Positions 4,155-4,354 of a DNA stretch of 4,354 nucleotides are shown here, piece after piece. Made by a program: the position numbers and the translations under genes. The stretch comes from a virus (Duplodnaviria; Heunggongvirae; Uroviricota; Caudoviricetes): IMG/VR virus record IMGVR_UViG_2671180411_000005; one strand, written 5' to 3'. The notes beneath the pieces are model-generated. The model did no database searches. It worked only from the letters and a program-made list of their open reading frames with translations, and was not told where the DNA came from. Every line of letters starts with the position of its first letter. The stretch's first letter is position 1.

Positions 4155-4286
4155 GTGATAAAGCCATTTTTAATGACGGTTGCAATATTAACCTCTTGCT
4201 GTGCTCAGGCGAAAATACTAACAAATGAGGAGATTGTTTCACGATTTATTAGTAACGTTAAAACGGTGATGCTGCCAACTTACTGA
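4155..4286 (+). CDS. Small ORF with lipoprotein-like signal peptide, disrupted by IS1 at 4265 (the last 7 codons and the stop are IS1-encoded)
   Basis: GTG at 4155 preceded by GGAG (4143-4146) with an 8 nt spacer. It translates as MIKPFLMTVAILTSCCAQAKILTNEEIVSRFISNVKT, then VMLPTY and a stop from IS1 sequence. It has a basic n-region, a hydrophobic core and a lipobox-like L-T-S-C. It lies in an AT-rich segment that differs in composition from the tail genes. Confidence 0.3.
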   Translation: MIKPFLMTVAILTSCCAQAKILTNEEIVSRFISNVKTVMLPTY

Positions 4287-4354
4287 TTTAGTGTATGATG
4301 GTGTTTTTGAGGTGCTCCAGTGGCTTCTGTTTCTATCAGCTGTCCCTCCTGTTC
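4265..4354 (+). mobile_element. IS1 insertion sequence, left end (terminal inverted repeat plus start of insA), continuing beyond the window
   Basis: From 4265 the sequence GGTGATGCTGCCAACTTACTGATTTAGTGTATGATGGTGTTTTTGAGGTGCTCCAGTGGCTTCTGTTTCTATCAGCTGTCCCTCCTGTTC matches the IS1 left end as I recall it. This is from memory, not a search. Confidence 0.8.
4320..4354 (+). CDS. insA: IS1 InsA, N-terminal fragment (runs off the window end)
   Basis: GTG at 4320 followed by codons for A-S-V-S-I-S-C-P-S-C, matching the known InsA N-terminus (MASVSISCPSCSATDG...) with its Cys-x-x-Cys zinc-finger motif. Confidence 0.7.
   Translation, partial: MASVSISCPSC

Follow-up and report, generated by a model that had tools for sequence, protein, structure and literature searches.

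The Stx2e-converting phage phiP27 (NC_003356 / AJ298298) carries genes for the tail sheath, tube, chaperone, tape measure, DNA circularisation and baseplate in that order, with the DNA-circularisation gene lying 15 bp after the tape measure stop. SfV, SfII and SfI are more distant relatives of the prophage considered here, at about 77% identity. Insertion sequences (IS) of Shigella are likewise well described. In S. sonnei, S. flexneri and S. dysenteriae, IS1 outnumbers every other IS; together with IS600 and IS4, it belongs to a group of five IS that have expanded in all Shigella species, and most insertion sites in this expansion come from IS1 (PMC7373316). PMC8072062 describes Shigella genomes as rearranging often, and IS1 copies can recombine.

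Here, we compare with these systems a stretch of 4354 nt from a Caudoviricetes record (IMG/VR IMGVR_UViG_2671180411_000005), hereafter the window, which covers a run of contractile-tail genes and ends inside an IS1 element. A search of the literature for papers on this particular prophage remnant yielded general ones only.

A phiP27-related prophage remnant in Shigella sonnei

The window is a contig from a draft assembly, and both of its ends lie inside multicopy IS, IS600 on the left and IS1 on the right. It begins 72 nt from the IS600 end and stops 90 nt into IS1 because draft contigs break in multicopy repeats. Window positions 1–3047 and 3070–4354 are 100% identical to nine complete or near-complete chromosomes (4.78–4.87 Mb) and to the draft contig L014, whose alignment begins at window position 55; these ten matches were found by look-up of the exact sheath protein. 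One of the nine chromosomes is that of S. sonnei Ss046 (CP000038.1; locus L012), and the matching chromosomes share a context of clpB, yfiH, rluD, bamD and IS4. Thus, the window does come from an IS1-rich Shigella host, as had been proposed from the sequence alone. Across the collection, 2065 blocks list a sheath protein identical to that of the window, and in 1888 of these the longest contig carrying it measures 2–5 kb. Contigs of this size fit short-read S. sonnei assemblies that routinely break at IS600 on one side and at IS1 on the other.

The first 72 nt of the window (1–72, + strand) belong to IS600, whose right (3') end they form; in 2889 E. coli records they agree at 100% with features annotated 'IS3-like element IS600 family transposase'. 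Prophage homology begins at position 73. There follow, all on the + strand, genes for a 498-aa tail sheath (92–1588; Pfam Phage_sheath_1, Phage_sheath_1C and Phage_sheath_domII, annotated as tail sheath in relatives), a 118-aa tail tube (1588–1944; Pfam Tail_tube, E = 1.4e-33), a 111-aa tail assembly chaperone (1944–2279; Pfam Phage_TAC_7, E = 6.3e-7) and a tape measure protein (2364–4087, with its stop codon at 4085–4087). The last of these was assigned from the list of ORFs, from alignment with relatives and from a match of the Ss046 copy to Pfam PhageMin_Tail.

In the window, the tape measure gene is represented by two overlapping ORFs (2364–3233 and 3077–4087). It seems split because of a run of 22 N (3048–3069), an assembly or scaffold gap with flanks 100% identical to L005–L013. 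The missing segment corresponds to L012 12957–13204 in Ss046, and the gene is intact, at 649 aa, in every complete genome read (gene calls of L003–L014). We considered a frameshift or a 226-bp deletion in this gene and rejected both, since the gap replaces 248 bp of a gene that complete genomes carry whole. The run of N understates the size of the gap, as its true length in complete S. sonnei genomes is these 248 bp.

Between window positions 73–4264 and phiP27, nucleotide identity is 96.8% over 95% of the query, and the order of the genes is the same. The remnant is a phiP27-related prophage, of the kind with an HK97-type head and a Mu-type contractile tail. Unlike phiP27, the S. sonnei remnant lacks the capsid, connector and tail-terminator genes and everything further left, while phiP27 lacks a 160-aa accessory gene that is discussed below. 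An E. coli prophage in strain FDAARGOS_944 (L002; NZ_CP065613.1 625809–649530) is 99.8% identical to the S. sonnei remnant and retains the accessory gene intact. This E. coli prophage is itself disrupted, with two copies of ISEc60 (IS4-like) in the portal and sheath genes and a frameshifted terminase gene.

The retained tail genes are bounded on the left by the IS600, which is full length in Ss046 (L012 8718–9981). When Ss046 is compared with FDAARGOS_944, this element is seen to join L002 coordinates 5491 and 9001. In the intact prophage these flanks lie apart, and hence the IS600 marks a real IS-associated deletion. About 3.5 kb is missing (L002 5492–9000), namely the remainder of the protease gene and the genes for capsid, connector, head closure, tail terminator and DUF2635. 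To the left of IS600, only 452 bp survive in Ss046, made up of the end of the portal gene and the start of the protease gene, and IS600 joins the prohead-protease fragment directly to a point 19 bp before the start of the sheath gene. Immediately left of the remnant are an IS4, which bounds its left edge, and chromosomal bamD. Head, neck and tail genes are incomplete in the Ss046 locus. The original prediction of a defective prophage was therefore sound, but the defects lie elsewhere than it had supposed, in the IS600-associated head/neck deletion, at the IS4 edge and in a second copy of IS1 described below.

The IS1 element and its target site

The last 90 nt of the window (4265–4354, + strand) had been recognised as the left end of IS1 together with the start of insA, and all 90 of them agree with annotated IS1, much more closely than chance would allow. 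In a megablast search of 5,426 complete E. coli genomes, 9307 records were identical to this segment over its full length (100% identity to annotated IS1A copies, E = 7e-39), and the features beneath these matches read 'IS1-like element IS1A family transposase'. The segment begins GGTGATGCTGCCAACTTACTGAT TTAGTGTATGATGGTGTTTTTGAGGTGCTCCA GTGGCTTCTGTT, of which GGTGATGCTGCCAACTTACTGAT is the 23-bp left inverted repeat (4265–4287). The GTG start of insA is at 4320, called from L012 14455 in Ss046, and the first 35 nt of the gene are in the window, which stops inside the element.

In Ss046, the IS1 is complete (L012 14400–15167; 768 bp), with a right end of ...AAGTTGGAGTCATTACC and terminal repeats that are imperfect (18/23 complementary). 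The frames of insA and insB are intact. Gene calls in L005–L013 bear Zn_ribbon_InsA, HTH_Tnp_IS1 and DDE_Tnp_IS1, and their sizes are either 91 aa plus 125 or 167 aa, or 232 aa for a fusion; the A6C slippery (frameshift) site is present in the L012 element as TTAAAAAACTC. Nothing of substance distinguishes this element from IS1 (IS1A/IS1 family, 768 bp), of which the window shows just the left 90 nt.

The 9 bp adjoining IS1 at 4256–4264, which had been singled out as the sequence to look for at the other end of the element, read CGTTAAAAC. They are the left copy of a target-site duplication, and the second copy lies past the right IS1 end. In Ss046, a repeat finder located CGTTAAAAC at L012 14391–14399 and again at 15168–15176, with a start-to-start spacing of 777 (that is, 768 + 9), and the second copy is followed by ATCTGCAGATAATGACG. 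The arrangement recurs wherever the element can be read through: in 11 of 11 such loci, the flanks on both sides agree and CGTTAAAAC is duplicated. In the uninterrupted E. coli prophages of AST215 (L001) and FDAARGOS_944 (L002), which are 97.5% and 99.8% identical to the window, the empty site reads ...AGTAACGTTAAAACATCTGCAGATAATGACG... and holds a single CGTTAAAAC. One copy in the empty site and two around IS1 indicate a textbook simple transposition, in which no flanking DNA was lost.

The prophage–IS1 junction was absent from the complete E. coli genomes, in which all prophage matches end at window position 4264 or earlier. When one genome per species was scanned for the exact 54-nt junction, 0 matches came up, presumably since S. 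sonnei does not serve as a species representative there; this outcome carries no information on the junction.

On the far side of the IS1 lie what is left of the accessory gene (68 aa) and genes for DNA_circ_N (463 aa), a GpP-like baseplate protein and Mu Gp45, followed by those for GP46, Baseplate_J and Mu Gp48 and by genes for fibres and fibre assembly. The distance from the right IS1 end to the start of the DNA-circularisation gene is 429 bp (L012 15167 to 15596). Given that the baseplate and fibre genes continue past IS1, the tail module is not truncated here.

The original prediction had held otherwise. It counted 267 nt from the tape measure stop to the window end, a distance that is correct, found no baseplate gene there, and suggested that IS1 had truncated or deleted the tail module. 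According to that account, the IS1 would mark the endpoint of a deletion, the baseplate genes having been lost by IS1-mediated adjacent deletion or by IS1–IS1 recombination. The window indeed shows no baseplate gene, and the 3.5-kb deletion at the IS600 of its other end demonstrates that IS-associated deletions occur in this prophage. However, all 11 read-through assemblies, which are identical or near-identical to the window, carry the duplication and continue into baseplate genes, which already disproves a deletion endpoint in Ss046 and the 10 others and makes it very unlikely for the window. Neither the truncation nor the loss of baseplate genes after the tape measure gene survives these comparisons: CGTTAAAAC is found at the other IS1 end with nothing lost, and the genes resume past the element, from DNA circularisation through fibre. 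The prediction had also allowed for a simple insertion in a spacer, to be recognised by a 9-bp duplication at the other end and baseplate genes beyond. Both features are present and the insertion is simple, but the target is not a spacer, as IS1 has split a 160-aa gene.

The interrupted accessory gene

The stretch of 267 nt that follows the tape measure gene is not empty. It holds an ORF with a GTG start that runs from 4155 into IS1; this ORF, like the IS600 end and the run of N, had escaped the original prediction. The prophage part of the ORF (4155–4264, + strand) is the 5' part of the 160-aa accessory gene, comprising 36 codons plus 2 nt; the full-length gene is found in relatives. IS1 splits the gene after the second base of codon 37. 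The resulting fused ORF (4155–4286) encodes 43 aa and stops at a TGA (4284–4286) inside the IS1 repeat. In E. coli, the intact gene (L001 13309–13791; L002 14613–15095) is annotated as encoding a 160-aa hypothetical protein and sits between the tape measure and DNA-circularisation genes. It is present in E. coli matches H11–H21 and absent in H22–H40, and phage vB_EcoM-720R4 has a 50% identical homologue of the protein in the same slot.

The accessory protein matches phrog_5586 (function unknown) with E = 9.7e-89, and sequence searches of Pfam, NCBIfam, PADLOC and PDB gave no match. Its N-terminus, MIKPFLMTVAILTSC, is lipoprotein-like (...AILTSC), and MIKPFLMTVAILTS followed by C fits the lipobox pattern [LVI][ASTVI][GAS]C as judged by eye. 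These features suggest that the accessory gene is a putative lipoprotein gene. Its GC content is 36.9%, ∼16 points below that of its neighbours (52–55%), and a terminator-like hairpin with a T-run follows it (L002 15101–15123). The gene therefore resembles phage 'morons' in its variable presence between conserved late neighbours, its low GC content and an apparent intrinsic terminator of its own. A point of difference may be the promoter, as a consensus scan found none of sigma-70-like type before it. On balance, the accessory gene appears to behave like a dispensable 'moron' gene.

IS1 has a known preference for AT-rich targets and for duplications that begin and end in C. The AT-rich target and the C-bounded duplication seen here fit this preference.

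One could imagine that the insertion was not neutral. Loss of the phrog_5586 protein, a putative surface lipoprotein encoded by the prophage, might have been selected in the S. sonnei ancestor, for example because a surface-exposed or phage-exclusion protein was thereby removed. If so, selection would account for the insertion seeming fixed in every assembly read. We regard such selection as very improbable; fixation by hitch-hiking or through a bottleneck, in a prophage already dead, is far more likely.

Probable course of the insertion and variation at the site

A second IS1 occurs in Ss046, 4.4 kb downstream and in reverse orientation (L012 19580–20347), inside the baseplate J gene, which it splits. 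Its sequence agrees at 100% with that of the copy at the window end, and it bears its own 9-bp duplication, GGGGGCGCA. Two identical copies in opposite orientation thus flank L012 15168–19579, and they could be viewed as one unit, composite-transposon-like or an invertible segment, carrying the baseplate genes N to J'. This idea is highly improbable: each copy keeps an intact and different duplication (CGTTAAAAC and GGGGGCGCA), and the gene order between them is collinear with that of the uninterrupted E. coli prophages. As each IS1 copy has its own matching duplication, the data point to two independent simple insertions, with no inversion or joint transposition.

An assembly artefact at a chimeric contig end, for which one might cite the draft status of the contig, its 22-N gap in place of 248 bp and its two ends in multicopy IS, can be set aside almost entirely, because independent closed chromosomes and further drafts show the identical junction.

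We conclude that the window very probably ends in a complete IS1 that entered, by simple insertion, the accessory gene of a phiP27-like S. sonnei prophage with tail genes continuing beyond. The identity of the element, its duplication, the empty site and the downstream genes can be read directly from the genomes compared; the course of events would have been as follows. A 768-bp IS1 would have transposed into the phiP27-like prophage within the S. sonnei lineage, with the AT-rich beginning of the accessory gene as its target, and produced the usual 9-bp duplication, CGTTAAAAC. The insertion would have split the gene at codon 37 and removed nothing, leaving in place both the rest of the gene and the baseplate/fibre block. 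The choice of an AT-rich target may reflect the preference of IS1. For the window's own strain, we infer the right junction from the identical genomes, and it would read CGTTAAAAC and then ATCTGCAGATAATG.

Against a simple insertion in the window's own strain weigh the ability of IS1 copies to recombine, the frequent rearrangement of Shigella genomes and variants of the site in two loci. In L004 (AKNC01000076.1), the same site is occupied by 1544 bp (4881–6424), consisting of two tandem IS1 copies separated by the 8 bp TACATCGG; this pair may be a tandem dimer of IS1 or else an artefact of assembly. In the complete genome CP151301.1 (L009 14400–16434), an IS600 is nested within this IS1 after approximately IS1 nt 446. 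The L009 insert is longer by 1267 bp, as expected for an IS600 of 1264 bp with a duplication of 3 bp, and the nested element is a product of later IS-into-IS activity at the site.

The IS1 insertion described here is ordinary, already known Shigella IS biology. It has been in a public genome since 2005 (Ss046), is one of hundreds of IS insertions in published S. sonnei genomes, and belongs to the well-described expansion of IS1, IS600 and IS4 in Shigella (PMC7373316), and as such it matters little. It is useful as an illustration: a deletion cannot be read from a contig end that lies in an IS, and in this case the target duplication, together with the unoccupied site of the E. coli prophage at 99.8% identity, shows that the insertion was clean.
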